Part shown: piece by piece, positions 2,824-59,200 of the stretch
Position numbering within the stretch: position 1 is the stretch's first letter
How the letters are laid out: each line of letters opens with the position of its first letter
Assembly: GCA_030390025.1 (NCBI GenBank)
Contig: CM059432.1
Span: 77,316,001 to 77,380,000, forward strand
Direction of reading: 5' to 3'
DNA from: Squalus acanthias
Lineage: Eukaryota
Length of the DNA: 64,000 nt
The notes under the pieces: generated by a model
Seen by the model: the letters and a program-made list of their open reading frames with translations, nothing else
What the model was told of the DNA's origin: nothing
Database searches by the model: none
Position numbers and translations under genes: made by a program

Positions 2824-4758
2824 TCACACCCTACTGCTTCTCCGTAATGTGGCCCCAGTGGCTGCAGCAAGGCTGGTGGAAGGCTGCTGAGTCTGGGAGC
2901 CAGAGACTGCAGATGGCCTTGAAGGACGCCCTCGACCAGCTCTGGGCCTGGAGGGCGCGGCTGCAGACTGCACCAACTCTGCATGGGCGGCAGCAGTCTG
3001 GACTGGCTGTGTTGCAGGCCGTGCCAAGTGCAATGGCGGAGTGGTAGTGGTGGGAGCAGGAATGCTGTCATCCTGAGAGAGGACAGCACCTTCCTGCTTG
3101 ACCGACACACTGCCACTCCCATGGGGCAGTACCTCAGCATCCGGAGCAATCTGCTCAGGCACAGATTGCTGGCCTGCTGCAGTACCATGAGATCCCTGAG
3201 GGACTGTGGGCGACCCAGCGAGGATGGCAGCAGTCAGTGCTTGTATGACATCAACCTGAGACTGCATCAGAGCAGTCTGAGACTTGATGGTACCAGCCAA
3301 TGACTCAATTGTAGCACTAAGCTGTTGCGTTGCGTCGGCCTGTGCTGCATTGGATCCTGCCACCTCACCCATTACACGCGGCATGGGCTCGGGTTCACCA
3401 CGGTCTCCCTGCAATTCCACCATCCTCTGCAACGAGGCAAGGATGGGTTCAAGGGTTTGCGCACAAATGACAGCTGTGCTAGCGGCGGACTCCTCCACGC
3501 TCCTAGCCAGTCCATCCATGCTTTTGGGCACCCTTGCCATTGCACCCATGAGCTCAGTGTGCATGCTCAAGGCCTGGGTATTCATGGCCGTGATGTCAAG
3601 GTCCTCATCCGAGTCCTGTGCAGCAGAACTCGCGCGTCTACTCGCCCTCCAGGGAGAAGGCCCCCGAGCTTCCCTACCCCCATGGCGTTGCTGCAGCCCG
3701 CTGGGTCCAGGAGCTTTGCCCTCATCAGACCCTACCCCACTGCTCCCCTCCATGGCCCCAGTGACTTGATTTGTCACCCTCGGGAGACGCAGGCGCTGAG
3801 GCTCCAGCTTCCTCTTCCTCCTCGTCTGGGGCGTCGCTGCCACTGGCAGGTTGAGGGATAGGCTGGTCAGTTGGTGGTTCACTATCTGAAAGCAGGAAGG
3901 TACAAGAGTGGCTTTAGCGTGAGGGCAGGGGGGCAGGAAGGGAGCAAGGGCTGGAGACAGTTAGTTGGATTGAAAGTGTAGAAGGCTGATGTTGTGAGGG
4001 GCAAGTGGTATGAGAGAGGAGAGAAAGTTGATGAACATACCATTGCTATCCCCAAGGCGGTCGACCTCCCCAGCGGCCACAGCACCTATGACCTGGCTGG
4101 CAACGATCCTGTGCACTGTCGGCTCCAAATTGGTCAGGGGGTGTAGGTCAGCCGGTCCTCCTCCCGTGCGTTGCTGCTGCCGCCTGTTATGAGAGAGCTT
4201 GGCTTGCAAGAAAAAGGACAGCGTCTGAGTGAGTGTGCAGTCATGTGTTGCACATAGCTGAATAGCCCTTAATGTGTACATTCGTTTGTTTGCCTGATGT
4301 GCCTCCCATAGTTGAATAGCCCTTAATGTGTGCAAGGTGTGGAATGTGCATGTGTCTTTTTTGAGATGGCCATAGATCTTGGATGAGTGCTGTGCATTTG
4401 GGTTTTTAAACCCTTTGGGCACAGAGTGAAGTTGAGATGGAGGGATGTAGAGGTATTGAAAAGCAGCTACTCACCCTGACGACCCGAGTGAGGTCGTTGA
4501 ACTTCTTCCTACACTGAGTGTGACTCCTCGGCAACAGGCTCCTTGAGGAGACGTGCTGAGCCACCTCCCTCCACACTCTTCGGTACTCCCGGGGCAATGG
4601 CCTCCTGCCACTCTCTGGGTACAGCACTGCCCGTCGGTGCTCAACAGCACCAACCAGAGCCACCAAGGCCTGGTCGCTAAAGCGACGAGCTCTCTCCCTG
4701 GGCCTATCCATCAGTCCTCTCAGCACAATAGTAGTAGGTCTTTCCAGCTCCAGAGTCA
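2824..4758 (-). pseudogene. Harbinger Myb/SANT-like DNA-binding protein gene, three exons (~4475-4758, 4041-4203, 2824-3885)
   Basis: Exon 1 RARRFSDQALVALV..VWREVA..QCRKKFNDL with GTGAGT donor at 4474. Exon 2 AKLSHNRR..RTGGGP with GTATGT donor at 4040; its acceptor reads CAA instead of CAG. Exon 3 has an acceptor at 3886 and appears frameshifted. Confidence 0.85.
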
Positions 4759-20386: not shown

Positions 20387-23300
20387 AACAACAACTTGTA
20401 TTTATATAGCACTTTTAACATAGTAAAACGTCCCAAGGCGCTGTACAGGAGTATTATGAGAAAAAAAAATTTGACACCGAGCCATATAAGGAAAAATTAG
20501 GGCAGGTGACCAAAAGCTTGGTCAAAGAGGTAGGTTTTAAGGAGCGTCTTAAAGGAGGAAAGAGAGGTAGCGAGGCAGAGAGGTTTAGGCAGGGAATTCC
20601 AGAGCTTAGGGCCTAGGCAACAGAAGGCACGGCCACCAATGGTTGAGCGATTATAATCAGGGATGCTCAAGAGGGCAGAATTAGAGGAGCGCAGATATCT
20701 CAGGGAGTTGTGGGGCTGAAGGAGATTACAGAGATAGGGAGGGGTGAGACCTTGGAGGGATTTGAAAACAGGGATGAGAATTTTGAAATCGAGGCGCTGC
20801 TTAACCGGGAGCCAGTGTAGGTCAGCGAGCACAGGGATGATGGGCGAATGGGACTTGGTGCGAGTTAGGACACAGGCAGCCGAGTTTTGGATGACCTCAA
20901 GTTTACATAGGGTGGAATGTGGGGGGCCAGCCAGGAGTGAATTGGAATAATCAAGTCTAGAGGTAACAAAGGCATGGATGAGGGTTTCAGCAGCGGATGA
21001 GCTGAGGCAGGGGCAGAGACGGGCGATGTTACAGAGGTGGAAATAGGTGGTCTTTGTTATGCTGCGGATATGTGGTCAGGACGCCCATTTCAGGGTCAAC
21101 TATGACACCAAGGTTGCGAACAGTGTGGTTCAGCCTCAGATAGTTAGGCAGAGGGATGGAGTCAGTGGCTAGGGAACAGAGTTTGTGGCGGGGATCAAAA
21201 ACAATGGCTTCGGTCTTCCCAATATTAAATTGGAGAAAATTTCTGCTCATCCAGAACTGTATGTCGGACAAGCAGTCTGACAATTTAGAGACCGTGGAGG
21301 GGTCGAGAGAAGACGTAGTGAGGTAGAGCTGGGTGTCGTCAGCGTGCATGTGGAAATTGATGCTGTGTTTTCGGATGTTGTCACCAAGGGGCAACATGTA
21401 GATGAGAAATGGGAGGAGGCCAAGGATAGAATCTTGGGGGACACCAGAGGTAACGATGCGGGAGCGGGAAGAGAAGCCGTTGCAGGTGATTCTCTGGCTA
21501 CGATTAGATAGATAAGAATGGAACTAGGCGAGTGCGGTCCCACCCAGCTGGACGATGGTGGAGAAGCATTGGAGAAGGATGGAGTGGTCAACCGTGTCAA
21601 AGGCTGCAGATAAGTCAAGAAGGATGAGAAGGGATGGTTTACCTTTGTCACAGTCACAAAGGATGTCCTTTGTGACTTTGATGAGAGCCGTTTCGATACT
21701 GTGGCAAGGGCTGAAACCTGATTGGAGGGATTCAAACATACAATTGCGGGAAAGATGGGCACAGATTTGGGAGGCGACAACACGTTCAAGGACTTTGGAG
21801 AGGAAAGGGAGGTTGGAGATGGGAGTTTGCAAGGACGGAGGGGTCAAGAGTTGTTTTTTTGAGGAGAGGGATGATGACGGCAGATTTGAGGGAGAGGGGG
21901 ACAGTACCTGAGGAGGGAGAACTGTTAACAATATCAGCTAACATGCGAGCCAGAAAAGGAAGTTGGGTGGTCAGTAGTTTGGTGGGAATAGGTTCGAGGG
22001 AGCAGGAAGTGGGTCACATGGACAAGATGAGCATGGAGAGGTCATGAGGGGAGATCAGAGAGAAACTGGAGAAAGATGTGAGTTCAGGGCTAGGGCACGG
22101 GGGAAGCTTAGAGGAAGTTTGGCCCGGTGGGTTAGGGGAAGGAAGGGAATTGGCAGAGGCAGCTGAACAGATGGTCTCAACCTTGGAGACAAAGAAGTCC
22201 ATGAGCTCCTTACACTTGTTATTGGAGGTGAGGGTGGAGGAGACAGAGGAGAGGGGTTTAAGAAGACGGTTAGCAGTAGAGAATAGGAGCCGGGGTTTAT
22301 CTTTGCATTCCAGAATGATTCTGGAATAGTGAACAATTTTGGCAGACGAGAGCAGGACCCGATAATGCTTTATGTGGTCCAGCCAGATCTGGCAGTGAAT
22401 GGCTAAACCAGTTGTCCGCCATATCCGTTCAAGTCTGCATCCCTTGGACTTAAGGGAGCGAAGATTAAGGCCATACCAAGGGAAACAGCCAGGGTGAGAG
22501 AGAGTAATTGTTTTAGTAGGAACTAGGGCATCAAAGGTGGTGGTGAGGGTGTGGTTGAGTAGATTGGTAGCTGCAGAAATCTCATGGTGAATGGAGGGCC
22601 AAAGACTGGACAGTTGGGATTTCATAAGCGCAGTTGTAAGAGAGTTGGGAGAGAGTTTTTTTCAGGGGCGGATATAGAAGGAAGTAGGATTGTGGGGTGT
22701 GGAGGCAGGATGTGTGTGGAGAGCGATATGAGGAAGTGGTCAGAGATGGCCTTATCTACGATTGACACGATGGGAGTAGCGAGGCCACGAGAGATGGCAA
22801 GGTTGAGGGGGTGGCCGTGAATATGGGTTGGGGAGTTTACATGGAGGGAGAGATTAAGGGAGGATAGGAGGATAGTGAACTCAGAGGAGAGAGCATGATG
22901 AATTGAGATGGAGGTTGAAATCACCGAGAATGAGAAGTCGTTCAGTGCAGAGGCTGAGGGAGGAAAGCAGTGAAGATATCTCGGTAATAAAATTTTTATG
23001 GTACTTGGGTGGGTGGTAGAGAACAAGATATTTAAATGAGAGGTGAGAGGGGTGGAATAAGGTGAGTTGCTCAAAGGAGGAGAAAGTGCCGGAGGAGTAG
23101 GGGGACAGACCAAGGTGTGATTTGGTGATGAGAGCCACACTGCCACCACGGCAGTCTGAGCGGGGCAAGTGGTGGAAGGTATAGCCAGGCGGGGAGGCTT
23201 CATTTAAGGGTAAGGTGTCATCACCCCTCAACCAAGTTTCCGTCAGGGCCATGATGTTGATGCAATCACCCATGATAAGCTCATGGATGGCAAAGGCCTT

Positions 23301-24355
23301 GTTCGCAAGTGAACGGACATTCTGGAGGGAGATGTGGTGAGGGTCGGTGATGGCTGCCCCACTGCCAGCATCCACAGGGTCAGCGCTGGGGGGAGGGATG
23401 AGTTGGATGGGGAGGAAGATGGGAAGATTTGCCCCCAGTGGGCACGCTGGGTGGGAAGGTCGGCGAGAGAGTAGGATGGGACAGATGGGATTGCTGCTCC
23501 TAAGGAGGCAGCGACGATTGCCTCGATGGGCCCTTCGTAGGGTGCCAAGAGAGGCCCAGAGGGAAGCTGTAGGCTTATCTTAGAGGAAGTGAAGCCTGGG
23601 ACGGCGGCAGGAGAGTAGGAAGGTCGAAGAGTAATGAAGGATTGGGGTAGGGATTTGGGAGGGCAGTGTATCCGAAAGAGGAGAGATGAAAGGAAGCATG
23701 ATGACAGGAGAGAGCGGTCAGGAAGGGATAGAGAGAAAAGGAAAATAGGAAGAAAAAGTGGAATGGCTCAGGTCCGGAGCGGCAGCCAAAGTGCGCACGT
23801 GAATGGACACGGGAAAAGCTCAGGTTACATAGGCCTGTTTAAATGTAATAATTAATGGAATACATATTTCCTGGTAGCAGGGAATAGGTTGGGAACAATA
23901 GTCAAAGTCAGAGGTCCCATGGAAGGACAAAGCCGGCGTAAGCAGGATGGGGCCGGTACAGAGCATCGATGAACCAATGTCTGAAGCAGATGAGTAAAAT
24001 CCAGAAGCTATTTGAAGGGTAGAGAGTTCGAGGATGGAGGTTGTTGCTATAGGAATGAGAGTCGGTGGCGGTGCAGAAAGATGATGGCGAAATTGACGCA
24101 AGTTGGAGGTCACCGTAGATCAAAGCGGCGGAGAAAAAGTAAAACCACAAGCCAGCGTCCAGAAAAGCTGAAAACCGGTAGAACGAGTCATTGGACAGCA
24201 AGTGAAGCAGCAGCTGCTACCTAGAAGCCAGCAGAGCTGAAAACCAGTAGAACCAGTTCAGCAGAGACACAGCCGCAGTTTTAAGATAACAATCTTTTTG
24301 CAGCTGAGATAGAGACAAAGCAGGTAAGTCTTACTGTGTAATCCAGTGCAGAAAC
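20387..24355 (-). mobile_element. Near full-length L2 LINE, frameshifted APE-RT ORF2; upstream region probably continues at 30399-30710
   Basis: Endonuclease LQNVRSL..IMALTETWL and ILGDFN. RT SNLPFLSKVLERVV, LLDLSAAFDTVDH and HADDTQLY. (AAC)n tail at 20387. Confidence 0.9.
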
Positions 24356-24433
24356 ATAGTATAATCCAAAATAACAACAGAAAACGCTGGAAAAACTCAG
24401 CAGGCCAGGCAGCATCCGTGGAGAGAGAAAGAG

Positions 24434-24470
24434 AGTTGACGTTTCAGGTCGATGACCTTTCATCAGAACT
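24434..24470 (-). ncRNA. Minimal hammerhead ribozyme in the left-arm pLTR
   Basis: Exact reverse complement of 30248-30284. Confidence 0.85.
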
Positions 24471-24746
24471 GGGAAGAGCTGGAAATCAAATAGATTTAAG
24501 GCCAGGGTAAAGCTGGGAAAAGGGGGAGGGGATAAAGGAACAAAGGAGGAGATGAAGAGACATTAAGAGACATTAAGAGATATGCAAGGCTAGAGGTGGT
24601 GTTAATGTGACAGATTAAGGCTGAATGAAGTGTGAAATCTACTGGCAGAATGAAGGACAGCTGCCAGCTTCTAGGAGGAAAAAAAAGGTGGGGGGGACAA
24701 ATAAAAGGGTGGATAAAATAAAATATAAATGTGATTGGAGCTGAGG

Positions 24747-27191
24747 TTATGATCTAAAATTGTTGAACTCGATATTGAGTCCAGAGGGCTGTAGCGTGCC
24801 TAAACGAAAGATGAGGTGCTGTTCCTCGAGCTTACGCTGAGCTTCCGTGGAACAGTGTATTAGGCCGAGGACGGTGAGGTCAGAGTGGGAGTGAAGCGGT
24901 GAATTAAAGTGACAGGCCACCGGGAGCTCGGGGTCCCCCTTACGGACTGAACGGAGGTGTTCCGCAAAGCGGTCACCCAATCTGCGTTTGGTCTCCCCAA
25001 TGTAGAGGAGTCCACATCGTGAGCAGCGAATACAGTATACTAAATTGCAGGAAGTACAAGTAAATCGCTGTTTCACCTGGAAGGGGTGTTTGGGGCCCTG
25101 GACAGTGGGAAGAGGGGAGGTATAAGGGCATGTGTTGCATCTCCTGCGCGTGCACGGGAAGGTGCCGGGCGAAGGGGAAGGGGTGCTGGGGGTGGTAGAG
25201 GAGTGGACTAGGGTGTCGCGGAGGGAGCGGTCCCTGCGGAATGCTGAAAGGGGAGGTGAGGGGAAGATGTGTTTGGTGGTGGGATCACGCTGGAGGTGGC
25301 GGAAATGGCGGAGGATGATCCGTTGAATGTGGAGGCTGGTGGGGTGAAAGGTGAGGACAAGGGGAACCCTATCGTGGTTCCGGGAGGGAGGGGCAGGGGT
25401 GAGGGCAGATGTGCGGGAGATAGAACGGACACGGTCGAGGGCCGTGTCGACCACGGTAGAGGGGAATCCTCGGTTGAGGAAAAAGGAAGACATGTCGGAA
25501 GCACTGGTATGGAAGGTGGCATCATCAGAGCAGATGCGGCGGAGACGGAGAAACTGGGAGAATGGAATAGAGTCCTTACAGGAGGCGGGGTGGGAGGAAG
25601 TGTAGTCCAGGTAGCTGTGGGAGTCGGTGGGCTTGTAGTGAATGTTAGTCAATAACCTATCCCCAGAGATGGAGATGGAGAAGTCGAGGAAGGGAAGAGA
25701 AGAGTCGGAGATGGACCATGTGAAGGTGAGGGAAGGGTGGAAATTGGAAGCATAGTGAATGAAATGTTCTAGTTCAGGGCGAGAGCAGGAGACGGCACCG
25801 ATACAGTCATCAATGTACCGGAAAAAGAGGTGAGGGAGGGGACCCGAGTAGGACTGGAACAAAGAGTGTTCCACATATCCCACGAAAAGGCAGGCATAGC
25901 TAGGACCCATGCGGGTACCCATAGCAACACCTTTAATTTGGAGGAAATGGGTAGAGTCAAAGGAGAAGTTGTTCAATGTGAGAACAAGTTCAGCCAGGCG
26001 GAGGAGGGTGGTGGTGGATGGGGACTGGTTGGGCCTCTGTTCAAGGAAGAAGCGGAGCGCCCTCAGGCCATCCTGGTGGGGAATGGAGGTGTAGAGGGAT
26101 TGTACGTCCATAGTGAAGAGGAGACGGTTGGGGCCGGGAAACTGGAAACTGTTAAAATGGCGGAGGGCATCGGAAGAGTCGCGGATGTAGGTGGGAAGAG
26201 ACTGGACAAGGGGAGAAAAAATAGAGTCGAGATAGGAAGAGATAAGTTCCGTGGGGCAAGAACAGGCTGAAACGATGGGTCTACCGGGGCAGTCCTGTTT
26301 GTGGATCTTGGGAAGGAGGTAGAAGCGGGCTGTGCGGGGTTGGGGAACTATGAGGTTGGCGGCCGTGGGGGGAAGATCTCCAGAGGAGATGAGGTCAGTG
26401 ACAGTCTTGGACACGGTGGCTTGATGTTCGGTAGTGGGGTCATGGTCCAGGTGGAGGTAGGAGGAGGTGTCAGAGAGTTGGCGTTCAACTTCCGCTAGGT
26501 AGAGGTCGGTTCGCCAAACAACAACAGCGCCACCCTTGTCAGCAGGTTTAATGACAATGTCAGGGTTGGATCGGAGAGAATGGAGTGCTGCAAGTTCAGA
26601 GGGAGGTAGGTTGGAGTGAGTGAGGGGAGCAGAGAAATTGAGCTGGCCGATGTCACGGCGGCAGTTAGCAATGAAAAGATCTAGAGAGGGTAAGAGGCCA
26701 GAGGGAGGGGTCCAGGTGGAACGAGAATTCTGAAAGCGGGAGAAAGGGTCAGCCGTGCGGGGGGAAGACTCCTGGCCAGAGAAGTGGGCACGGAGACGGA
26801 GGCGGCGGAAAAAGAGCTCAGCATCGTGCCGAGCTCGAAATTCATTGAGATGGGGGCGTAAGGGGATGAAGCTCAGGCCTTTGCTGAGGACTGATCGTTC
26901 GGAGTCAGAGAGGGGAAGGTCAGAGGGGATAGTGAAAACGCGGCAGGGGGTGAGATTGGGAGAAGGGGGGTCAGAGGAAAGTGAAGGGGAAGAAGGTTCC
27001 GGAGGGGCTTTAGTGTCCAAGAGTTGTTGAAGCTTGCGATCCTTGACATCGGAAAGGAAGAAGAAAAGTTTTTTGTTGAAGCGTCGGATGAGTCTAAGGA
27101 TGAAATGGAACTGTGGACCCGGACAGCTTTGAGATAGAGTGCGTCGGTGCTGCTGAAGAGAGATGTCGAGAGTGTTCATGTGGCGCCGCAT
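24747..27191 (-). CDS. 5'-truncated copy of the PLE RT + GIY-YIG ORF (814 aa from an internal Met)
   Basis: Translation reads identical to the C-terminal 814 aa of ORF 27221-29971. Confidence 0.8.
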   Translation of the reverse strand: MRRHMNTLDISLQQHRRTLSQSCPGPQFHFILRLIRRFNKKLFFFLSDVKDRKLQQLLDTKAPPEPSSPSLSSDPPSPNLTPCRVFTIPSDLPLSDSERSVLSKGLSFIPLRPHLNEFRARHDAELFFRRLRLRAHFSGQESSPRTADPFSRFQNSRSTWTPPSGLLPSLDLFIANCRRDIGQLNFSAPLTHSNLPPSELAALHSLRSNPDIVIKPADKGGAVVVWRTDLYLAEVERQLSDTSSYLHLDHDPTTEHQATVSKTVTDLISSGDLPPTAANLIVPQPRTARFYLLPKIHKQDCPGRPIVSACSCPTELISSYLDSIFSPLVQSLPTYIRDSSDALRHFNSFQFPGPNRLLFTMDVQSLYTSIPHQDGLRALRFFLEQRPNQSPSTTTLLRLAELVLTLNNFSFDSTHFLQIKGVAMGTRMGPSYACLFVGYVEHSLFQSYSGPLPHLFFRYIDDCIGAVSCSRPELEHFIHYASNFHPSLTFTWSISDSSLPFLDFSISISGDRLLTNIHYKPTDSHSYLDYTSSHPASCKDSIPFSQFLRLRRICSDDATFHTSASDMSSFFLNRGFPSTVVDTALDRVRSISRTSALTPAPPSRNHDRVPLVLTFHPTSLHIQRIILRHFRHLQRDPTTKHIFPSPPLSAFRRDRSLRDTLVHSSTTPSTPSPSPGTFPCTRRRCNTCPYTSPLPTVQGPKHPFQVKQRFTCTSCNLVYCIRCSRCGLLYIGETKRRLGDRFAEHLRSVRKGDPELPVACHFNSPLHSHSDLTVLGLIHCSTEAQRKLEEQHLIFRLGTLQPSGLNIEFNNFRS

Positions 27192-27220
27192 GGCATTGAG
27201 CTGCCACCTCTCTTCTTGGA

Positions 27221-29971
27221 ATGCCTACCTTGAAGAAGTTCTGCTCTTCTCTTCGACGGGATTTCCGTTTGGCTCTTCAACCTTGTTCATCTTCATTGAT
27301 TTCAGTTTCCCTTCTCGTGTTTGATCAGGTATCTGCCAAGACTCGGTTTCACAGCCACATTACTTTCCTCAGCAACTGTCTCCGGTTCCGACTTATCCCA
27401 CGTGGATTCCAACTAAACTTCCACCCTTCGTGTTTCGGATCCACCCAGGATTACAAATATCTCCAAGATATTCATCGTTCCTCGAACTACTGCTCTCGCC
27501 GCATCTTGAGATCCACGCTCAATGCCATGCGGCGCCACATGAACACTCTCGACATCTCTCTTCAGCAGCACCGACGCACTCTATCTCAAAGCTGTCCGGG
27601 TCCACAGTTCCATTTCATCCTTAGACTCATCCGACGCTTCAACAAAAAACTTTTCTTCTTCCTTTCCGATGTCAAGGATCGCAAGCTTCAACAACTCTTG
27701 GACACTAAAGCCCCTCCGGAACCTTCTTCCCCTTCACTTTCCTCTGACCCCCCTTCTCCCAATCTCACCCCCTGCCGCGTTTTCACTATCCCCTCTGACC
27801 TTCCCCTCTCTGACTCCGAACGATCAGTCCTCAGCAAAGGCCTGAGCTTCATCCCCTTACGCCCCCATCTCAATGAATTTCGAGCTCGGCACGATGCTGA
27901 GCTCTTTTTCCGCCGCCTCCGTCTCCGTGCCCACTTCTCTGGCCAGGAGTCTTCCCCCCGCACGGCTGACCCTTTCTCCCGCTTTCAGAATTCTCGTTCC
28001 ACCTGGACCCCTCCCTCTGGCCTCTTACCCTCTCTAGATCTTTTCATTGCTAACTGCCGCCGTGACATCGGCCAGCTCAATTTCTCTGCTCCCCTCACTC
28101 ACTCCAACCTACCTCCCTCTGAACTTGCAGCACTCCATTCTCTCCGATCCAACCCTGACATTGTCATTAAACCTGCTGACAAGGGTGGCGCTGTTGTTGT
28201 TTGGCGAACCGACCTCTACCTAGCGGAAGTTGAACGCCAACTCTCTGACACCTCCTCCTACCTCCACCTGGACCATGACCCCACTACCGAACATCAAGCC
28301 ACCGTGTCCAAGACTGTCACTGACCTCATCTCCTCTGGAGATCTTCCCCCCACGGCCGCCAACCTCATAGTTCCCCAACCCCGCACAGCCCGCTTCTACC
28401 TCCTTCCCAAGATCCACAAACAGGACTGCCCCGGTAGACCCATCGTTTCAGCCTGTTCTTGCCCCACGGAACTTATCTCTTCCTATCTCGACTCTATTTT
28501 TTCTCCCCTTGTCCAGTCTCTTCCCACCTACATCCGCGACTCTTCCGATGCCCTCCGCCATTTTAACAGTTTCCAGTTTCCCGGCCCCAACCGTCTCCTC
28601 TTCACTATGGACGTACAATCCCTCTACACCTCCATTCCCCACCAGGATGGCCTGAGGGCGCTCCGCTTCTTCCTTGAACAGAGGCCCAACCAGTCCCCAT
28701 CCACCACCACCCTCCTCCGCCTGGCTGAACTTGTTCTCACATTGAACAACTTCTCCTTTGACTCTACCCATTTCCTCCAAATTAAAGGTGTTGCTATGGG
28801 TACCCGCATGGGTCCTAGCTATGCCTGCCTTTTCGTGGGATATGTGGAACACTCTTTGTTCCAGTCCTACTCGGGTCCCCTCCCTCACCTCTTTTTCCGG
28901 TACATTGATGACTGTATCGGTGCCGTCTCCTGCTCTCGCCCTGAACTAGAACATTTCATTCACTATGCTTCCAATTTCCACCCTTCCCTCACCTTCACAT
29001 GGTCCATCTCCGACTCTTCTCTTCCCTTCCTCGACTTCTCCATCTCCATCTCTGGGGATAGGTTATTGACTAACATTCACTACAAGCCCACCGACTCCCA
29101 CAGCTACCTGGACTACACTTCCTCCCACCCCGCCTCCTGTAAGGACTCTATTCCATTCTCCCAGTTTCTCCGTCTCCGCCGCATCTGCTCTGATGATGCC
29201 ACCTTCCATACCAGTGCTTCCGACATGTCTTCCTTTTTCCTCAACCGAGGATTCCCCTCTACCGTGGTCGACACGGCCCTCGACCGTGTCCGTTCTATCT
29301 CCCGCACATCTGCCCTCACCCCTGCCCCTCCCTCCCGGAACCACGATAGGGTTCCCCTTGTCCTCACCTTTCACCCCACCAGCCTCCACATTCAACGGAT
29401 CATCCTCCGCCATTTCCGCCACCTCCAGCGTGATCCCACCACCAAACACATCTTCCCCTCACCTCCCCTTTCAGCATTCCGCAGGGACCGCTCCCTCCGC
29501 GACACCCTAGTCCACTCCTCTACCACCCCCAGCACCCCTTCCCCTTCGCCCGGCACCTTCCCGTGCACGCGCAGGAGATGCAACACATGCCCTTATACCT
29601 CCCCTCTTCCCACTGTCCAGGGCCCCAAACACCCCTTCCAGGTGAAACAGCGATTTACTTGTACTTCCTGCAATTTAGTATACTGTATTCGCTGCTCACG
29701 ATGTGGACTCCTCTACATTGGGGAGACCAAACGCAGATTGGGTGACCGCTTTGCGGAACACCTCCGTTCAGTCCGTAAGGGGGACCCCGAGCTCCCGGTG
29801 GCCTGTCACTTTAATTCACCGCTTCACTCCCACTCTGACCTCACCGTCCTCGGCCTAATACACTGTTCCACGGAAGCTCAGCGTAAGCTCGAGGAACAGC
29901 ACCTCATCTTTCGTTTAGGCACGCTACAGCCCTCTGGACTCAATATCGAGTTCAACAATTTTAGATCATAA
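27221..29971 (+). CDS. Penelope-like reverse transcriptase with C-terminal GIY-YIG endonuclease, intact, 916 aa
   Basis: IKPADKGGAVVV, YLLPKIHK, GRPIVS, TMDVQSLYTSI, QIKGVAMGTRMGPSYA, FRYIDD, LPFLD. CTRRRCNTC linker (Neptune-like). NLVYCIRCSRCGLLYIGETKRRLGDRFAEH endonuclease. Confidence 0.96.
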   Translation: MPTLKKFCSSLRRDFRLALQPCSSSLISVSLLVFDQVSAKTRFHSHITFLSNCLRFRLIPRGFQLNFHPSCFGSTQDYKYLQDIHRSSNYCSRRILRSTLNAMRRHMNTLDISLQQHRRTLSQSCPGPQFHFILRLIRRFNKKLFFFLSDVKDRKLQQLLDTKAPPEPSSPSLSSDPPSPNLTPCRVFTIPSDLPLSDSERSVLSKGLSFIPLRPHLNEFRARHDAELFFRRLRLRAHFSGQESSPRTADPFSRFQNSRSTWTPPSGLLPSLDLFIANCRRDIGQLNFSAPLTHSNLPPSELAALHSLRSNPDIVIKPADKGGAVVVWRTDLYLAEVERQLSDTSSYLHLDHDPTTEHQATVSKTVTDLISSGDLPPTAANLIVPQPRTARFYLLPKIHKQDCPGRPIVSACSCPTELISSYLDSIFSPLVQSLPTYIRDSSDALRHFNSFQFPGPNRLLFTMDVQSLYTSIPHQDGLRALRFFLEQRPNQSPSTTTLLRLAELVLTLNNFSFDSTHFLQIKGVAMGTRMGPSYACLFVGYVEHSLFQSYSGPLPHLFFRYIDDCIGAVSCSRPELEHFIHYASNFHPSLTFTWSISDSSLPFLDFSISISGDRLLTNIHYKPTDSHSYLDYTSSHPASCKDSIPFSQFLRLRRICSDDATFHTSASDMSSFFLNRGFPSTVVDTALDRVRSISRTSALTPAPPSRNHDRVPLVLTFHPTSLHIQRIILRHFRHLQRDPTTKHIFPSPPLSAFRRDRSLRDTLVHSSTTPSTPSPSPGTFPCTRRRCNTCPYTSPLPTVQGPKHPFQVKQRFTCTSCNLVYCIRCSRCGLLYIGETKRRLGDRFAEHLRSVRKGDPELPVACHFNSPLHSHSDLTVLGLIHCSTEAQRKLEEQHLIFRLGTLQPSGLNIEFNNFRS

Positions 29972-30247
29972 CCTCAGCTCCAATCACATTTATATTTTAT
30001 TTTATCCACCCTTTTATTTGTCCCCCCCACCTTTTTTTTCCTCCTAGAAGCTGGCAGCTGTCCTTCATTCTGCCAGTAGATTTCACACTTCATTCAGCCT
30101 TAATCTGTCACATTAACACCACCTCTAGCCTTGCATATCTCTTAATGTCTCTTAATGTCTCTTCATCTCCTCCTTTGTTCCTTTATCCCCTCCCCCTTTT
30201 CCCAGCTTTACCCTGGCCTTAAATCTATTTGATTTCCAGCTCTTCCC

Positions 30248-30284
30248 AGTTCTGATGAAAGGTCATCGACCTGAAACGTCAACT
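30248..30284 (+). ncRNA. Minimal hammerhead ribozyme in the right-arm pLTR
   Basis: AGTT-CTGATGA-A-AGGTC atc GACCT-GAAA-CG-TC-AACT: canonical core, GUC cleavage triplet, palindromic ACGT stem III. Confidence 0.88.
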
Positions 30285-30772
30285 CTCTTTCTCTCTCCAC
30301 GGATGCTGCCTGGCCTGCTGAGTTTTTCCAGCGTTTTCTGTTGTTATTTCGGATTTCCAGCATCTGCAGTATTTTGCTATCGTAATAGTATAATCCAATC
30401 TCGTTCAAAGCAGAGACGTAGTCCAGATGTCCAGAGAAGTCCAAGAGATCCGAAACCAATTTGACAAAAGAATTCCTCAGCTTAAGACTTGAAGTGACTG
30501 AAAAGCAGAGCATTGCCACAGCCGCTGAGTCAAACCGTGTAGTCAACGAAGTCCTGTCTGCGAGGAATCCAGCGATAGAGGTCAAGGTTCAGCAGAGTTC
30601 CAGCAGTGGAAAGAGCTCAGTGAGAACAAAAATGCCAGTGGATGGGCCGTGGACTCTGCAGGGGTAGCTTTAAACTTGTAGTTTGAACTTGTAGTTTGGG
30701 CTAAAATGCTTTCACTATCAGAAGTGAGAAGTCGCACAACACCAGGTTATAGTCCAACAGTTTTATTTGAAA

Positions 30773-33051: not shown

Positions 33052-33160
33052 AAAATGAAATAAAAACAGAAAATACTGGAAACATTCAGCAGGTCAGCTG
33101 GCATCTGTGGAGAGAGAAACGAACTTGACCTTTTAGGTCGATGACCTTTCATCAGCTCTG
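33052..33160 (-). mobile_element. Penelope pLTR remnant (family A) with degenerate hammerhead
   Basis: cagaaaatactggaaacattcagcaggtcag..ggagagagaaa..aggtcgatgacctttcatcag matches 24378-24466. Confidence 0.75.
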
Positions 33161-38726: not shown

Positions 38727-40937
38727 TCATAGAAACATAGAAATGTAGAAGATAGGAGCAGGAGTAGGCCATTCGGCCCCTCGAGCCTGTTCCACCATTT
38801 AATGAGATCATGGCTGATCATCCAAATTCAGTACCCTGTCCCTGCTTTCTCCCCATACCCCTTGCTCCCTTTAGCCTTAAGAAATATATCTAACTCCTTC
38901 TTGAATATATTTAATGAATTGGCCTCAACTGCCTTCTGTGGTAGAGAATTCCACAGGTTCACCACTCTCTGGGTGAAGAAATTCCTCCTCATCTCAGTCC
39001 TAAATGGCTTACCCCTTATCCTTAGACTGTGACCCCTGGTTCTGGACTCCCCCGCCATCGGGAACATCCTTCCTGCATCTAGTCTGTCTAGTCCTGTTAG
39101 AATTTTATAAGTTTCAATGAGATTCCCTCTCATTCTTCTAAACTCCAGCAAATATAAGCCTAATCGACCCAATCTCTCTTCATACGTCATTCCTGCCATC
39201 CCAGGTATCAGTCTGGTGAATCTTCGCTGCACTCCCTCCATGGCAAGAACATCCTTCCTCAGATAAGGCGACCAAAACTGCACACAATACTCAAGGTGTG
39301 GTCTCACTAAGGCCCTGTACAACTGCAGCAAGACATCCTTGCTCCTGTACTCGAAGCCTCTTGCTATGAAGGCCAACATACCATTTGCCTTCTTGACCGC
39401 CTGCTGCACCTGCATGCTTACCTTCAGCGACTGGTGCACAAGGACACCCAGGTCTCGTTGCACTTCCCCTTTTCCCAATCTATTGCCGTTCAGATAATAA
39501 TCTGCCTTCCTGTTTTTGCCACCAACGTGGATAACCTCGCATTTATCCACATTATACTGCATCTGCCCAATCACCCAACCTGTCCAAATCATACTGGAGT
39601 TTCTCTGCATCCTCCTCACAGCACACACGCCCACCCAGCTTTGTGTCATCTGCAAACTTGGAGATATTACATCTAGTTCCCTTGTCTAGATCATTAATAT
39701 ATATATTGTGAATAACTGGGGTCCTAGCACCGATCCCTGCGGTACCCCACTAGTCACTGCCTGCCACTCGGAAAAAGACCCGTTTATTCCAACTCTTTGC
39801 TTCCTGTCTGCCAACCAGTTTTCTATCCAAATCAGTACCTTACCCCCAATCCCATGTGCTTTAACTTTGCACGCTAATCTCTTATGCGGGACCTTATCGA
39901 AAGCCTTCTGAAAGTCCAAATACACCACATCCACTGGTTCTCCCTTATCTATTCTACCAGTTACATGCTCAAAAAATTCCAGTAGATTAGTCAAGCATGA
40001 TTTACCTTTTGTAAATCCATGTTGACTTTGTCCGATCCTGTCACTGTTTTCCAAGTGCTCTGCTATTACATCTTTTATAATGGACTCTAGCATTTTCCCC
40101 ACTACCGATGTCAGGCTTACTGGTCTATAATTCCCCGTTTTCTCTCTACCACCTTTTTTAAATAGTGGGGTTACATTAGCTACCCTCCAATCCATGGGAA
40201 CTGTTCCAGAGTCTATAGAATTTTGGAAGATGACCAGCAATGCATCTACTATTTCTAGGGCCACTTCCTGAAGTACCCTAGGATGTAGATTATCAGGCAC
40301 TAGGGATTTATTGACCTTCAATCCCGTCAATTTCCCTAACACCATTTCCCTACAAATACTGATTTCATTCAGTTCCTCCCTCTCATTAGACCCTATGTTC
40401 CCCGACATTTCTGGGAGGTTATTTGTGTCCTCCTTTGTGAAGACAGAACCAAAGTATGTATTTAATTGGTCAGCCATTTCTTTGTTCCCCATTATAAATT
40501 CCCCTGATTCTGACTGCAAGGGAGCTACACATGACTTCACCAATCTTTTTCTCTTCACATATCTATAGAAGCTTTTACAGTCAGTTTTTATGTTCCCTGC
40601 AAGCTTACTCTCATAATCTATTTCCCCCTCTTAATTAATCCCTTTGTCCTCCTTTGCGCAATCCTAAACTGCTCCCAATCCTCAGGTTTGCTGCTTTTTC
40701 TGGCCAAATTATATGTCCTCTCCTTGGATCTTATGCTATCCCTAATTTCCCTTGTTAGCCACGGTTGAGTCACCTTTTTTGTTTTATTTTTATGCCAAAC
40801 AGGGATGAACAAATTCTGTAGTTCATCCATGCGATCTTTAAATATTTGCCATTGCGTATTCACCGTTAACCTTTTAAGTAACATTCCTCAATCCATCCTA
40901 GCCAACTCGTGCCTCATACCATCGTAGTTTCCTTTAT
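38727..40937 (-). mobile_element. 5'-truncated CR1 LINE (RT, frameshifted)
   Basis: NYRPVSLTSVVGK, YLDFQKAFDKVPH, GVPQGSVLGP. (CATAGAAA)n tail at 38727. Confidence 0.93.
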
Positions 40938-42283: not shown

Positions 42284-45200
42284 CATAGAGTCATAGAGTC
42301 ATAATGGCACAGAAGGAGGCCATTCGGCCCATCGAGTCCGTGCCGGCTCTCTGTAGAGCAATCCAGTCAGTCCCATTCTCCCGCTCTATCCCCGTAGCCC
42401 TGCAAGTTTATTTCCCTCAAGTGCCTATCCAGTCTCCCCTTGAAAACATTGAGTGTCTCCTCTTCCACCACTTCCGTCAGCAGCGAGTTCCAGGTCATCA
42501 CCACTCGCTGCGTAAAAAAGTTTTTCCTCACATCCCCCCTGTATCTCTTGCCCAAAACCTTAAATCTGTGTCCCCTAGTCCTTGTACCATCAACTAGTGG
42601 GAACAGTCTTTCCCTGTCTAGCCTATCCAAACCCGTCATAATCTTGTACACCTCTATCAAATCACCGCTCAACCTCCTTTGCTCTAATGAAAACAAATCC
42701 AGCTTCTCCAACCTGTCCTTGTAGCTAAGATCCCCCATCCTCGGAACCATTTTGGTAAATCACCTCTGCACCCTCTCAAGGGCCTTCACATCCTTCCTAA
42801 GGTGTGATGACCAGAACTGGATGCAATACTCCAGTTGTGGCCTAACCAGCGCTTTATAAAGGTTCAGCATAACTTCTCTACTTTTGTACTTAATACCTCT
42901 ATTTATGAAGCCCAAGATCCCATATGCTTTGTTAACCACTCTCTCAATATGTCCGACCACCTTCAGGGACCTATGCACATTAACTCCCAGGTCCCTTTGT
43001 CCCTGCACACTCTTTAAAACTGTGCCTTTAAGTGTATATTGCCTCTCCCTGTTCCTTCTGCCAAAATGCATCACCTCACACTTCCATCTGCCACTTGTCT
43101 GCCCATTCTGCTAGCATTTCTATGTCCTGCTGCAGTCGATTGGAATCATCGTCACTGTTTGCCACACCCCCAAGTTTGGTGTCATCGGCAAAATTAGAAA
43201 TTCTACTCTGTATTCCAATATCCAGGTCATTTATATATATCAATAAAAGCAGTGGCCCCAGCACTGACCCTTGGGGAACACCACTGCCTACCAGTCTGAA
43301 AAACAACTATTTACCACAACTCGCTGTTTTCTGTCCTTAAGCCAATTCCTTATCCAAGCTGCCACTGACCCATCTATTCCATGAGCCTCAATTTTGTTAA
43401 CCAACTTTCTATGTGGTACTTTGTCAAACATCTTCCGAAAATGCATGTAGACAACATCCATTGCATTCCCTTCATCAATCCTCTCTGTTACTTCATCAAA
43501 AAACTCAATTAGATTAGTCAAACACGATCTGCCTTTTACAAATCCGAGTTGGCTCTCCTTAATTAGCTTAAACCTCTCCAAGTGCCCATTAATTTTTTAT
43601 TGTTTCGAAAACTTTACCCACCATTGATGTTAAACTGACCGGCCTGTACTTACTAGGATTGTCCTTACACCCTTTCTTGAACAATGGTGTCACATTTGCC
43701 ACTTTTCAATCCTCAGGCACCTCCACCGCATCTAGGGAAGATTGGAAAATTATGGCAAGCCCTTCTGCTATCTCCTCCCCCAATTCCCTTAACAACCTGG
43801 GATGCAAGCCATCTACAAGGCACAAGTAAGGAGTGTGATGGAATACTCTCCACTTGCCTGGATGAGTGCAGCTCCAACAACATTTAAGAAGCTCAACACC
43901 ATCCAGGACAAAGCAGCCCGCTTGATTGGCACCCCATCCACCACCTTAAACATTAACTCCCTCCACCACCGGCGTACCATGGCTGCAGTGTGTACCATCT
44001 ACAAGATGCACTGCAGCAACTCACCAAGGCTTCTTCGGCAGCACCTCCCAAACCCGCGACCTCTTCCACCTAGAAGGACAAGGGCAGCAGGCACATGGGA
44101 ACACCACCACCTCCAAGTTCTCCTCCAAGTCACACACCATCCTGACTTAGAAGTATATCGCCGATCCTTCATCGTCGCTGGGTCAAAATCCTGGAACTCC
44201 CTACCTAACAGTACTGTGGGAGTACCTTCACCACACGGACTGCAGCGGTTCAAGAAGGCGGCTCACCACCACCTTCTCAAAGGCAATTACGGATGGGCAA
44301 TAAATGCTGGCTTTGCCAGTGACGCCCACATCCCATAAACGAATAAAAAAAAAGCCATCTGGACCAGGTGACTTGTCCACTGTAAGCAAACCCAGCCGTT
44401 CTAGTACATCCTGTCTATCAATTTTCACCCCTTCCATTGCTTCTACCTTTTCCACTTCTACTGATATTTTGTCAGCATCCACCTCCTTAGTAAACACCGA
44501 TACAAAGTGCTCATTGAGTATTCTAGCCTTGCCCTGCGTCTCTAAGCATATATCACCTTCTTTGTCTCTAATAGGCCCCACCCCGTCTCTTACTACCCGC
44601 TTACTGTTTACATGCCGGTAGAAGATTTTTGGGTTCCCTTTTATGTTAACCGCCATTCTACTCTCATATTCTCTCTTTGCCAATCTTATTTTCATCTTCA
44701 CTTTGCCTCTCAACTTATTGTATTTGTTCTGGTTCTCCCTTGAAGAATTTACCTGACATGCATCATACACCCTCTTTTTTTGTTTCATCATCTTCTTTAT
44801 CTCCCTCATCATTCAAGGAGCCCTTGCTTTGGTTCCCTTACCCTTCCCTCTTGTTGGGGTGTACCTAGCCTGTACTTGGAACATTTCCTCCTTAAAGATC
44901 ACCCATTGTTCCATTACAGTTTTTCCTGTCAGTCTTTGGTTCCATTTTACCCTGGCTAGATCCTTTCGCATCCCATTGAAGTTAGCCCTATTCCAGTTTA
45001 GAAGTTCCACTCTAGATTGTTCCTTGCTCCTCTCCATTGCTAATCCAAATCTTATGAAACAATGATCACTCATACCCAAGTGTTCTCCCACAGACACTTG
45101 GTCGACCTGGCCCACCTCATTCCCCAGCATCAGATCCAGCAATGCCTCCTTCCTAGTTGGGCCAAGAACATACTGGTCAAGGAAATTCTCCTGAACACAT

Positions 45201-45576
45201 TTCAGAAATTCCTCCCCCTCCTTTCCCTTTACCCTAGCATTATCCCAATCGATATTTGGGTAATTAAAGTCCCCCAATATTACCACTCTATAGCGCTTGC
45301 ATATCTCTGCGATTTCCCTGCAGATTTGCTCCTCTACCTCCCTCTCACTATTTGGAAGCCTATAGAATACCCCCAAAAGTGTGATTATACCCTTTTTGCT
45401 CCTCAACTCTAACCAAATGGATTCTGTCCTTGTCCCCACAAGAACATCCTCCTTTTCCAACACTACAATGTCTTCCTTAATCAGCACTGCCACTCCGCCT
45501 CCCTTTTTTCCTTCCCTATCTTTTCTGAACACCTTGTAGCCTTGAATATTAAGTGCCCAGTCCTCACCATTTTTAA
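42284..45576 (-). mobile_element. CR1 LINE, endonuclease to 3' end, decayed
   Basis: FRKDREGKKGGGVAVL, ILGDFNYP, SDH and RT motifs FADDTKL. (CATAGAGT)n tail. Confidence 0.92.
43815..44351 (+). mobile_element. 3' end of a different, poly(A)-tailed non-LTR retrotransposon family (CR1/L2/I-like RT thumb)
   Basis: IYKAQVRSVMEYSPLAW..IQDKAARLI..SLHHRR, then AATAAA and poly(A). TSD AAGCCATCT at 43806-43814 and 44352-44360. Confidence 0.82.
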
Positions 45577-45681
45577 GCTTTTAGAAACAATAATCAGGGA
45601 CAAAATTAACAGTCATTTGGACAAGTGTGGGTTAATTAAGGAAAGCCAGCATGGATTTGTTAAAGGCAAATCGTGTTTAAC

Positions 45682-47580: not shown

Positions 47581-50500
47581 GGGGGAGATATTGGGCTCGG
47601 TAGCACACGTTATTTAGGCGCTAATCGGCCTCCTAAATGTCAAAAATTGGGTCTCAGATGTGCGCGCGCGCACGTTCGACAGGATGTGCGCCGGACACCA
47701 TCTTGGTACAGTAATTTGCGCGAGCGAACCTAACAACCGCCAGCAGCATGCAAAGCAGGTAGATTATGATGTCAATCAGTGTGCAACGCTGATTTGACGT
47801 CAGCACTGTCATTTTCAAATGTCACGCTCAAGCCAACGCCCTGTCTTAACCTGCCACAGCTGAAAACGACGTTAAACGGCATAAAGGACCCCACCCCCAC
47901 CACCAGTGCTACTTGAAAGGATCATGAACTACTTACAGGTTAGTTACTGGATTATTTCTTCTGGCTGCTGGTGCAATTCTATGCGTTTTTGGAGCTTTCC
48001 TATAGTTGTCTCAAGTTTCAATCATCTACCAGGAGTGGTCTGGCTGGTGCTGATGTACTTTTCTGTTGATTTAAAAGCTTGTGCTGAAACAAGTTGCTTC
48101 CACACATGGGCGGCCTAGTAGGCCTTCCTCTTGGAATTGAGCATGACTGGGAGAATGAAGAGAGGCCGTGCAGAGCAGAACAAGCTGCTAGAAGAGGAAG
48201 GATGAGGAGGGGGAGAAGGGCTCTCAGCAGGAGGACATATCCACCCAGGGTCTTTAGGGAGAAATTCTTTAACTTCAACTTCAGCGAGGATCAATGCATG
48301 CGATGTCTTCGCTTCACAAAAGAGGTTATGACTGAAATCTGACAACTGCTGCAGCCACAACTACAACCTCAAAGCAGGGCAAGGATCCCATTTCCATTGG
48401 CTGTTGAGGTGACTGTGGCGATGAACTTTTATGTGCCTGGCTCTTACCAGGCTGCTGCTGGAGATATAAGCAACATCTCACAGTTTGCAGTGCAGTGCTG
48501 CATGAGGGAGGTCACTGAGACTTTCTATACAAAGACAGACCTCTTCATCTCATTCCCTCTTGCCAGAGACAAGCAGGCAGAGCGAGCACATGAAAGAGGA
48601 GGAGGAGGGGAGGAGGAAGAAGTGTAGCAGGAAATGGAGGAACAGGAAGAGGAAGGGAGAATACAACCTATTAGAGACCAAAAAAGAAGCTTGTGTGTGG
48701 AGGCGGAAGACGTGGGTATGGTTTTAAATAAATACTTTGCGTCTATCTTCACAAAAGAGACAGACGATGCAGACCTTGTAGTTCAGGAGGAGGAGTGTGA
48801 AATATTAGATGAGATAAACATAGTAAGGGAGGAAGTATTAAGGGGTTTAGCATCTTTGAAAGTAGATAAATCACCTGGTCCAGATGAAATGTATCCCAGG
48901 CAGTTAAGAAAAGCAAGGGAGGAAATAGCGGAGGCTCTGACCATCATTTTCCAATCCTCTCTGGCTACAGGTGTGGTGCCGGAGGACTGGAGGACTGCTA
49001 ACATTGTACCGTTGTTTAAAAAGGAAGAAAGGGATAGACCAAGTAATTACAGGCCAGTCAGACTAACCTTGGTGGTGGGCAAATTGTTGGAAAATATTCT
49101 GAGGGACAGTATTAATCGTCATTTAGAAAGGCACAGATTAATCAAGGACAGTCAGCATGGATTTGTTAAGGGAAGGTCGTGTCTGACTAATTTGATTGAA
49201 TTTTTTGAGGAGGTAACAAGGAAGGTTGATGAGGGTAGTGCATTTAATGTAGTCTACATGGATTTTAGCAAGGCTTTTGACAAGGTCCCACATGGCAGAT
49301 TGGTCAGAAAAGTAAAAGCCCATGGGATCCAAGGGAAAGTGGCAAGTTGGATCCAAAATTGGCTCAGTGGCAGGAAGCAAAGGCTAATAGTCGATGATTC
49401 TTTTTGTGACTGGAAGGCTGTTTCCAGTGGGGTTCCACAGGGCTCAGTACTGGGTCCCTTGCTCTTTGTGGTACACATCAATGATTTAGACTTCAATGTA
49501 GGGGGCATGATTAAGAAGTTTGCAGATGATACTAAAATTGGCCATGTGGTTGATAGTGAGGAAGAAAGCTGTAGACTGCAGGAAGATATCAATGGACTCG
49601 TCAGGTGGGCAGAAAAGTGGCAAATGGAATTCAATCCGAAGAAGTGTGAGGGAATGCATTTGGGGAGGGCTAGCAAGGTAAGGGAATACACAATAAATGG
49701 TAGGATACTGAGAAGAGTAGAGGAACAGAGGGACCTTAGAGTGCATGTCCACAGATCCCTGAAGGTAGCAGGACAGGTAGATAAGGTGGTTAAGAAGACA
49801 TACAGGATACCTTCCTTTATTAGCCGAGGCATAGAATATAAGAGCAGGGAAGGTTATGCTTGAACTGTATAAAACACAAGTTAGGCCACAGCTGGAGTAC
49901 TGTGTACAGTTCTAGTCACCACATTACAGGAAAGATGTGATTGCACTAGAGAGGGTACAGAGGAGATTTAAGAGGATGTTGCCAGGACTGGAGAATTTTA
50001 GCTATGAGGAAAGATTGGATAGGCTGGGGTTGTTTTCTTTGGAACAGAGGAGGCTGAGGGGAGACTTGATTGATGTGTATAAAATTATGAGGGCCTAGAT
50101 AAAGTGGATAGGAAGGACCTATTTCCCTTAGCAGTGAGGTCAATAATCAGGGGGCATAGATTTAAAATAATTGGTAGAAGGATTAGAGGGGAGTTGAGGA
50201 GAACTTTTTTCAGCCAGAGGGTGATGGGGGTCTGGAACTCACTGCCTGAAAGGATGGTAGAAGCAGATACCCTCAGCACATTTAAAAAGTACTTGGATAT
50301 GCACTTGAAGTGCCGTAACCTACAGGGCTACGGACCAAGAGCTGAAAAGTGGGATTAGACTGGATAGCTCTTTTTCTCTGGCACAGACAGGATGGGTTGA
50401 ATGGCCTCCTTCTGTGCCATACATTTCTATGATTCTTTGAATGTAGACAGCCCATTTCTGCCTGGGCTTTACCTGCTCAAATAATTCATGAATGATACCA

Positions 50501-56249: not shown

Positions 56250-59200
56250 ATGGGAGGATTCAGGAAAGAGTAAATTTAAAAGCAGCGAGAGAAATGTCAA
56301 GGCTCTAGAGCAGAGTAGAGTTTTGGGGAAAAATAAGCAGAGTGGGTCAGGAAGGGACAGAGAGAGTAACAAAGGTAATAAGGCATCAATGATTAAGGTG
56401 ACATCTTAGAAATAAGTCAAAGTTAAAGGCACTATATCTGAATGCGTGAAGCATTCGCAACAAAATGGATGAATTAATAGCGCAGATAGAAATTAACAGG
56501 TTTGATCTAATAGCCATAACGGAGACGTGGTTGCAAAGTGGCCAAGGTTGGGAACTAAATATTCCAGGATACCTAACTTTTAGAAGAAATAGGCAAAATG
56601 GAAAAGGAGGAGGGATAGCCCTGATAATAAAGGATGGGATAAAGACAGTAGATCTTAGCTCCGAAAATCAAGATGTAGAATCAGTTTGGGTGGAGCTAAG
56701 AAACAGCAAGGGGCAGAAAACATTGGAGGGAGTTGTTTATAGGCCCCCAAACAGTAGTTATAATGTAGGGCAGAGTATAAATCAGGAAATTAGAGGCGCG
56801 TATAACAAGGGTAATACAGTAATCATGGGGGACTTTAATCTACATATAGACTAGGCAAACCAAATTTGCAGTAATAGTGTGGAGGACGAATTCATGGAAT
56901 GTCTGCAAGATAGTTTTCTAGATCAGTATGTTGAGGAACCAACTAGGGAACAGGTTATTTTAAATCTAGTATTGTGCAATGAGAAATAACCTTGTAGTAA
57001 AGGGGCCTTTAGGGAAGAGTGACCATAATATGATAGAATTTTAAATTAAGTTTGAAAGTGATTTAGTTAAATCCGAAACTAGGGTCTTAAATCTAAACAA
57101 AGCAAACTATGTAGGTATGAGGGGCGAGTTGGCTACAGTAGATTGGGAAACTACATTAAAAGGTATGACAGTAGACAAGCAATGGCTAGCATTTAAAGAA
57201 TTAATACATCATTTACAACAAATATACATTCCTTTAAGGCACAAAAACCCCACAGGAAAAGTGGTCCAACCGTGGCTAACAAGAGAAGTTAAAGATAGTA
57301 TTAGATCAAAGGAAGAGGCTTATAATTTTGCCAAAAAGAGTAGTAAGCATGAGGATTGGGAGGATTTTAGGATTCAGCAAAGGAGGACCAAGAAATTGAT
57401 AAAGAAAGGGAAAATAGAATATGAGAGTAAACTAGCGAGAGACATAAAAACAGACTGTAAAAGCTTTTATACGTATGTAAAAAGGAAAAGATTAGCGAAA
57501 GTAAATGTGGGTCCCTTACAGGCTGAGACAGGAGAAGTTATAATGGAGAATAAAGAAATAGCAGAGTAATTAAACAAATATTTTGTGTCTGTTTTCATGG
57601 AAGAAGACACAAAAAACTTCCCGAAAATAGTGGAGAACCAAGCCTCTAGCGAGAATAGAAACATAGAAACATAGAAGATAGGAGCAGGAGTAGGCCATTC
57701 GGCCCCTCGAGCCTGCTCCGCCATTCAATGCGATCATGGCTGATCATCCAAATTCAGTACCTGAGGAACTGAAAGAAATTAGTATTAGTAAAAAAATAAT
57801 ACTGGAGAAAGTAATGGGACTGAAAGCTGATAAACCCCTGGACCTGATGGCCTACATCCTAGGGTTTTGAAAGAGGTGGCTATAGAGGTAGTGGATGCAT
57901 TGGTTGTCGTTTTCCAAAATTCCATAGATTCTGGAATGGTTCCTGTGGATTGGAAGGTAGCAAATGTAACCCCACTATTTAAGAAAGGAGGTAGAGAAAA
58001 TGGGGAACTACAGACCAGTTAGCCTGACATCAGTAGTAGGGAAAATGCTAGAATCTATTATTAAGGACGTGGTAACAGGGCACTTAGAAAATAATAATAG
58101 GATTAGGCAGCGTCAATGCGGATTTATGAAACGGAAATCGTGTTTAACAAATCTGTTAGAGTTTTTTGAGGTTGTAACTAGCAAAATAGATAAGGGGGAA
58201 CCGGTGGATGTGGTGTATTTGGATTTTCAGAAAGGCATTCGTTAAGGTGCCACACAAGAGGTTATTAAACAAAATTAGGGTTAATGGGAGGGGGGGTGGT
58301 AATATACTAGCATGGATTGAGGATTGGTTAACGGACAGAAAACAGAGTGCAGGAATAAACGGGTCATTTTCGGGTTGGCAAGCTGTAACTAGTGGGTTAC
58401 CGCAAGGATCAGTGCTTGGGCCTCAGCTATTCACAATCTATATCAATGATTTGGATGAGGAGACCAAATGTAATGTATCCAAGTTTGCTGATGATACAAA
58501 GCTGGGTGGGAATGTAAGTTGTGAGGAGGATGCAAGAAGGCTTCAAGGGGATATAGACAGGCTAAGTGAGTGGGCAAGAACATGGCAAATGGAATATAAT
58601 GTGGAGAAATGTGAAGTTACCCACTTTGGTAGGAAAAATAGAAAAGCAGAGTATTTTTTAAATGGTGAGAGATTGGGAAATGTTTGTGTTCAGAGGGACC
58701 TGGGTGTCCTAGAACACGAATCACTAAATGTTAACATGCAGGTACAGCAAACAATTAGGAATGCAAATGGTATGTTGGCCTTTATTACAAGAGGATTTGA
58801 GTATAAGAGTAAAAACTTAACTGGACCAGCCACATAAATAATGTGGCAACAAGAGTAGGTCAGAGGCTAGGTATTCTGCGGCGAGTGTCTCACCTCCTGA
58901 CTCCCCAAAGCCTTTCTACCATCTACAAAGCACAAGTAAGGAGTGCGATGGAATACTCTCCACTTGCCTGGATGAGTGCAGCTCCAACAACATTCAAGAA
59001 GCTCGACACCATCCAGGACAAATTCTTACAGGGCTTGACAGGTTAGATGCATGGAGGATGTTTCCCCTGGCTGGGGAGTCTAGAACCAGGGGTCACAGTC
59101 TCAGAATAAGGGGTCAATCTTTTAGGACTGAGATGAGGAGAAATTTCTTCAATCAGAGGGTGGTGAATCTTTGGAATTCACTACCCTAGAGGGCTGTGGA

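Follow-up and report, generated by a model that had tools for sequence, protein, structure and literature searches.

Insertions in which inverted terminal arms of variable size lie within one target-site duplication (TSD) are a described layout of Penelope-like elements (PLEs) (PMC2377424, PMC3846280, PMC8557442), and the formation of the 3′ tail and of the inverted structures is named as unresolved in PMC8557442. In Drosophila virilis Penelope, the insertion consists of a partial tandem plus an inverted piece and is surrounded by inverted terminal repeats that are large and vary in size, and this inverted form is described as the most frequent structure; the upstream pseudo-LTR (pLTR) carries the promoter, and the 3′ extension measures 34–37 bp (PMC2377424). 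Pen2 and Pen2a of Adineta vaga have head-to-head inverted pLTRs within one TSD of 9–10 bp, with arms of ~200 bp and a tail that is optional on one of the inverted pLTRs; self-priming was proposed, and the available part of the paper holds no count of how the tails are paired (PMC3846280). The protein of the Anolis PLE Poseidon PAc, a member of a different clade, nicks and extends both target strands in vitro, and its reverse transcriptase (RT) starts at two directly mapped sites that bound the tail; the protein is a predicted dimer, the start site was no different between strands, and the ORF begins within the hammerhead (PMC11167929). In its available portions, that study draws no link from the extension of both strands to inverted insertions, nor to a single tail in each event.

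The window, a 64,000-nucleotide stretch of the Squalus acanthias genome (contig C8; genome size 3.7 Gb), contains a PLE unit that is real, recent and of this known kind (Table 1). It shares with D. virilis Penelope the large inverted terminal repeats and a 3′ tail of comparable length (35 nt), and with Pen2/Pen2a the head-to-head arrangement within one TSD; it differs from the former in having no upstream pLTR and an inverted arm that makes up 89% of the 3,199-bp family tandem unit. Specifically, the inverted arm is the reverse complement of positions 27517–30349 at 2,833/2,833 bases by direct comparison, with the exact match stopping at both inner ends and reaching 0 bases further outward. 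The right copy starts at unit base 16–17. An initial annotation had reported two ~2.83-kb arms free of differences around a 315-bp spacer, with mirrored ORFs of identical translation, and this is borne out in full, as the ORFs mirror each other exactly. Its picture of a single palindrome holds for the arms but not for the ends: because the 35-nt tail, which it overlooked, lies past the arm end in the right copy only, the palindrome ends are asymmetric. Elsewhere in the window, an older fragment of this 3′ end (33057–33155, 84% identity) stops at the tail-less site.

Table 1. Features of the inverted PLE insertion and its host repeat (window coordinates)
Feature	Position	Strand	Remarks
Host LINE-like repeat, left part	22869..24355	-	Paralog comparison
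APE-type endonuclease remnant in left part of host repeat	22881-23579		
Left 14-bp target-site duplication	24356..24369	+	Last base common to arm
Inverted arm, 2,833 bp	24369..27201	-	Begins at tail-less 3′ end (unit base ~3164); 5′-truncated at unit base 332
Hammerhead motif, mirror copy	24434..24470	-	By arm identity
Left-arm ORF, 5′-truncated	24747..27201	-	RT and GIY-YIG kept, N-terminus missing
Head-to-head junction	27201/27202		1-nt overlap; unique in assembly
Spacer	27202..27516	+	5′ part found in right copy alone
Right-copy open ORF	27221..29971	+	916 aa from first remaining ATG
RT core	28535..28918	+	RVT_1 E 2e-5, below gathering cut-off; YIDD motif
CX4CxxC linker (CTRRRCNTC), Neptune/Nematis type	29564..29590	+	Motif per PMC8557442
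GIY-YIG endonuclease, N-terminal part	29672..29785	+	Pfam E 4e-4, below gathering cut-off
Minimal type I hammerhead motif	30248..30284	+	AGTT / CTGATGA / 5-bp stem II / GAAA-CG-TC / AACT
35-nt tail	30350..30384	+	This end only
Right target-site duplication copy	30385..30398	+	
Host repeat, right part	30399..30722	.	Collinear with left part in paralogs, ~90% identity

The unit is flanked on both sides by a single older repeat, which retains a remnant of an APE-type endonuclease. The 14-mer ATAGTATAATCCAA has two copies in the window, one at each end of the unit, and none on the minus strand. In 7 of the 11 host-repeat paralogs that were fetched, the two flanks run directly into each other with this motif present once (one of the others joins the flanks with a gap and three are without the left part). 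The 14-mer therefore represents a genuine target duplication, as supposed when one direct repeat was said to flank the whole unit. Against two near-exact paralog motifs, both window copies show mismatches at the same two bases. The window is rich in repeats, among them degraded LINE pieces that match RT or APE endonuclease (38828–40630, 44813–45580, 48628–49863 and 58190–58837).

The element has several features of EN+ PLEs. A single ORF carries RT and then, C-terminally, a GIY-YIG endonuclease, with DKG and YIDD motifs; the two domains noted in the arms at the outset are both matched significantly in Pfam, but each match falls under its gathering cut-off. The family forms tandems that create pLTRs, although the window copy is without a direct upstream one, and the optional tail falls in the 30–40 bp range. 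A CX2-5CxxC linker precedes the endonuclease, a feature of Neptune elements that Nematis also has and that sets the window element apart from D. virilis Penelope. Near the 3′ end lies a putative hammerhead whose motif matches a minimal form (PMC4209133): its core can be read by eye, as can both stems (I, 4 bp; II, 5 bp), and stem II folds. The region had no Rfam match at E<=1, in RNA folding the 3′ end did not surpass shuffles (z 0.6, -0.9, 0.1), and a PDB search with the element gave 0 matches. An in-frame ATG lies inside the motif, at 30255. Across 40/40 pLTR–ORF junctions of the family, the frame is open from the ATG in the upstream hammerhead and measures 971 aa in 32/40, in copies that are near-identical and hence not independent evidence of coding. 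Judged from these frames, the family ORF is likely to comprise 971 aa and to begin, as in PAc, within the hammerhead, at an ATG of the upstream pLTR, and the window copy is likely to be without its first 55 codons. That the spacer holds the ORF start, as first annotated, is doubtful, given that the upstream hammerhead in which the family frame opens is missing here. To call the element intact was likewise an overstatement; because a source-competent partial tandem has an upstream direct pLTR with promoter and ORF start and the window unit has none, the copy here is unlikely to be an intact source of new ones.

The family is very young and abundant, and the early reading of the unit as one recent insertion with one TSD is supported: a 27-mer near the unit 5′ end has 582 exact matches, and the nearest sampled relatives of the window copy differ from it by 1–2 substitutions over 2.8 kb. 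We fetched 85 insertions from match lists without regard to layout, and 19/85 have an inverted arm; the sample consists of long copies on larger contigs, and its frequencies apply to copies of ~2.2 kb or longer. The layout is therefore not unusual in kind: it is common in the family as well as previously described in PLEs, and the arm length alone is extreme. Inverted arms in the sample range from 130 bp to 3.3 kb (median ~770 bp), and those above 2.3 kb occur in 2/85 insertions, L053 (two full copies head-to-head, 15-bp TSD) and L101. Head-to-head pairs number none among the first 100 listed 5′-end matches and one among the first 100 listed matches at unit base ~850. The window unit is rare in length (order 1–2% of long copies), not in kind.

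Examination of the 3′ ends across the family revealed a strict pattern. Plain, non-inverted copies (n = 63) fall almost entirely into two end classes (59/63), 25 with the tail and 34 without it, with 4 others; L097 (two separate insertions) and two multi-stretch tandem loci count as non-inverted in the 85 and stand outside these end classes. Our first set of inverted insertions numbers 21, made up of the 19 above, the window and L100, which was added because it had been seen as a pair; 17 have both ends intact and 4 have one end truncated. Every one of the 17 has one tailed and one tail-less end (16/16 without the window), a result with P = 5e-6 if the ends were independent. With the prediction fixed beforehand, we repeated the count in a replicate drawn from the first 60 places on contig C1 among the matches at unit base ~850, L100 excluded, which are mostly older copies. 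Seven loci had an inverted piece; three of these copies have one end truncated or outside the stretch, and the four readable at both ends (L135, L145, L152 and an insertion nested in L147) all follow the rule (4/4). Pooled, 21/21 inverted insertions carry exactly one tail (P = 3e-7, with the tail frequency taken from the first set). In 10/17 of the first set and 3/4 of the replicate, it is the shorter arm that bears the tail. We did not find a strict one-tail count or an explanation by two primers in the literature searched; older Penelope papers may state part of either, and priority is uncertain. The available parts of PMC9977147, PMC12910113 and a 2026 retrozyme preprint contain nothing on inverted insertions.

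These results lead us to the view that the window unit is probably one recent Penelope-like insertion into a LINE in which both cut strands primed RT on RNA from the same source, a mechanism read from end products. The element protein, possibly as a dimer, would cut the target strands ~14 bp apart. One target 3′ end would then prime at the tail end and give a cDNA running from 30384 back to 27202, while the other would prime 35 nt further in and give the cDNA from 24369 to 27201; both would run almost the full unit before their far ends were joined with a 1-nt overlap. The RNA for both primers would come from the same source, either one molecule or two transcripts of one locus. Plain copies may be cases that kept only one cDNA, which fits the roughly even split between tailed and tail-less ends. 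This mechanism joins the two-strand extension, the two start sites and the predicted dimer of the Anolis system, and the one-tail pattern, the alleles shared between arms, the TSD lengths and the differing junctions (below) speak for it. That the Anolis protein had no start-site difference between strands counts against it, as does L054, the one case that suggests two different templates: its inverted arm (3901–4573) does not match the main copy at a polymorphism that is common in the family. The initial annotation had the element doubled in one insertion; the single event stands, but two separately primed copies fit better than duplication of a copy.

A related possibility, which we regard as unlikely, is that priming takes place at the tail end on both strands, or that a double-ended intermediate forms, and that the endonuclease then trims 35 nt from one end, along the lines of the 'EN-mediated resolution' suggested in PMC8557442. 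Trimming would yield one tail per insertion within one TSD, and end products cannot tell a trim from a second start site; however, RT start sites at both tail boundaries have been mapped in vitro (PMC11167929). The junctions speak against a pre-formed inverted donor. In the first set (n = 21) they have overlaps of 0–10 nt or inserts of 5–38 nt, none of which repeats, and the central junction of the window unit has 1 occurrence in the assembly; that all 21 differ and that the window's is unique indicates that junctions form anew rather than being inherited between loci. TSDs of 13–16 bp were called at 18/21 first-set inverted insertions and 19/63 plain ones, counts that depend on the caller and may miss TSDs of plain copies; the replicate TSDs are 14 bp (L135), 15 bp (L145), 11 bp (L152) and 15 bp (the insertion nested in L147).

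It is improbable, in our judgement, that a single cDNA folded on itself and that the arm was copied from this cDNA, in a way akin to the self-priming idea proposed in PMC3846280. Such copying would account for alleles shared by the arms, which are indeed seen: over 19.5 kb, arms differ from their own main copy at 30 positions where 107 would be expected from other loci, and alleles private to a locus within the sample are common to both arms in 6/21 first-set inverted loci (L099 was left out of this scoring, in which short arms have little power). It also fits the window arm being a perfect subset of the main copy, as in 7/17 cases. In the 13/21 cases with a tailed short arm, however, that tail has no contiguous template in the longer copy, which excludes fold-back copying for those arms, and the main copy of L101 has no tail whatever. 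In addition, the overlap at the window junction is just 1 nt, and fold-back gives no reason for stopping exactly at the tail-less site. On these comparisons, self-priming is contradicted as a general route; it could hold for single copies and might formally apply to the window. The arm-shared base 28036 was considered as a private allele (39/40 pieces differ, and the one that does not is a poorly aligned end) and rejected: the 31-mer with this base has 1,304 matches, so the base is uninformative on fold-back.

It is very improbable that the palindrome is a fold-back artefact of assembly or library preparation. Zero arm differences would suit an artefact, and contigs from four public runs (23300–27516), swamped by family copies, yielded no spanning piece and no empty site either. 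Zero differences are nevertheless expected when the nearest other copies differ by 1–2 bases, and older inverted copies in the replicate have diverged arms (92–98%). Moreover, the flanks of the unit differ from each other; as they are contiguous in host-repeat paralogs, they are not mirrored in the way a fold-back artefact would leave them, and they enclose a proper TSD and the one-tail signature of the family. Least credible of all is that a second, independent insertion landed in inverse orientation on the 5′ end of the first: nested insertions are known in the family (L097, L147), but one TSD surrounds the whole unit with none inside, tailed and tail-less ends are anti-correlated in 21/21, and the arms share alleles.

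In L1 twin priming, both target strands also prime and leave an inverted 5′ piece within one TSD; there each cDNA is copied from a different part of a single RNA, and the tail is poly(A). By this definition, the window unit is not of the L1 type: both of its copies begin from the 3′ end, with the same 2,833 bp present in each. As a tentative extension of priming on both strands, and one we hold to be a close call that leans slightly toward doubt, a PLE dimer may in general hold one RNA at its terminal stem-loop and cut ~14 bp apart, with the tail-end start given to one strand and the internal start to the other. If true, such an asymmetric rule would account for three traits across PLEs, namely the tail being optional, the arms being inverted and the layout being head-to-head. 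In length, the palindrome stands at the upper end of a distribution already known, and its value lies in the family-wide one-tail rule, which makes the question of tails and inversions directly testable with an in vitro system that is already in place (PMC11167929). Being very young and having many open ORFs, the family is a good substrate for such tests. Perfect multi-kilobase palindromes made in one step could also yield hairpin RNA or local instability.

Several other loci have unusual structures. The independent inverted arms of L087 and L119 end at the same unit base, 2434, and are joined to different main-copy positions; this base is a possible RT stop site. At L035 (5122–5159), the junction has a 38-nt duplication and the main-copy 5′ end falls at the predicted hammerhead cleavage site; the 5′ end lies <=60 nt downstream of that predicted site in 7/35 insertions of an initial sample. 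A young inverted-type insertion is nested in an older family copy at L147 (5585–6885), with a 15-bp duplication. In L088 (1643–3481; G000:C3 near 100.477 Mb), a young copy has at its 5′ truncation point an 84-nt piece (unit 1591–1678) that is repeated head-to-tail in ~22 identical copies, as though one segment had been re-copied by RT again and again. The upstream tandem unit of L047 (5017–6882) is a mosaic, with 20 substitutions clustered in the 5′ 300 bp, which suggests a template switch to an older subfamily. Finally, L156 and L157 (G000:C1 near 69.45 Mb) are fragments that share their breakpoints and lie 5,131 bp from each other, and are likely a local tandem duplication.
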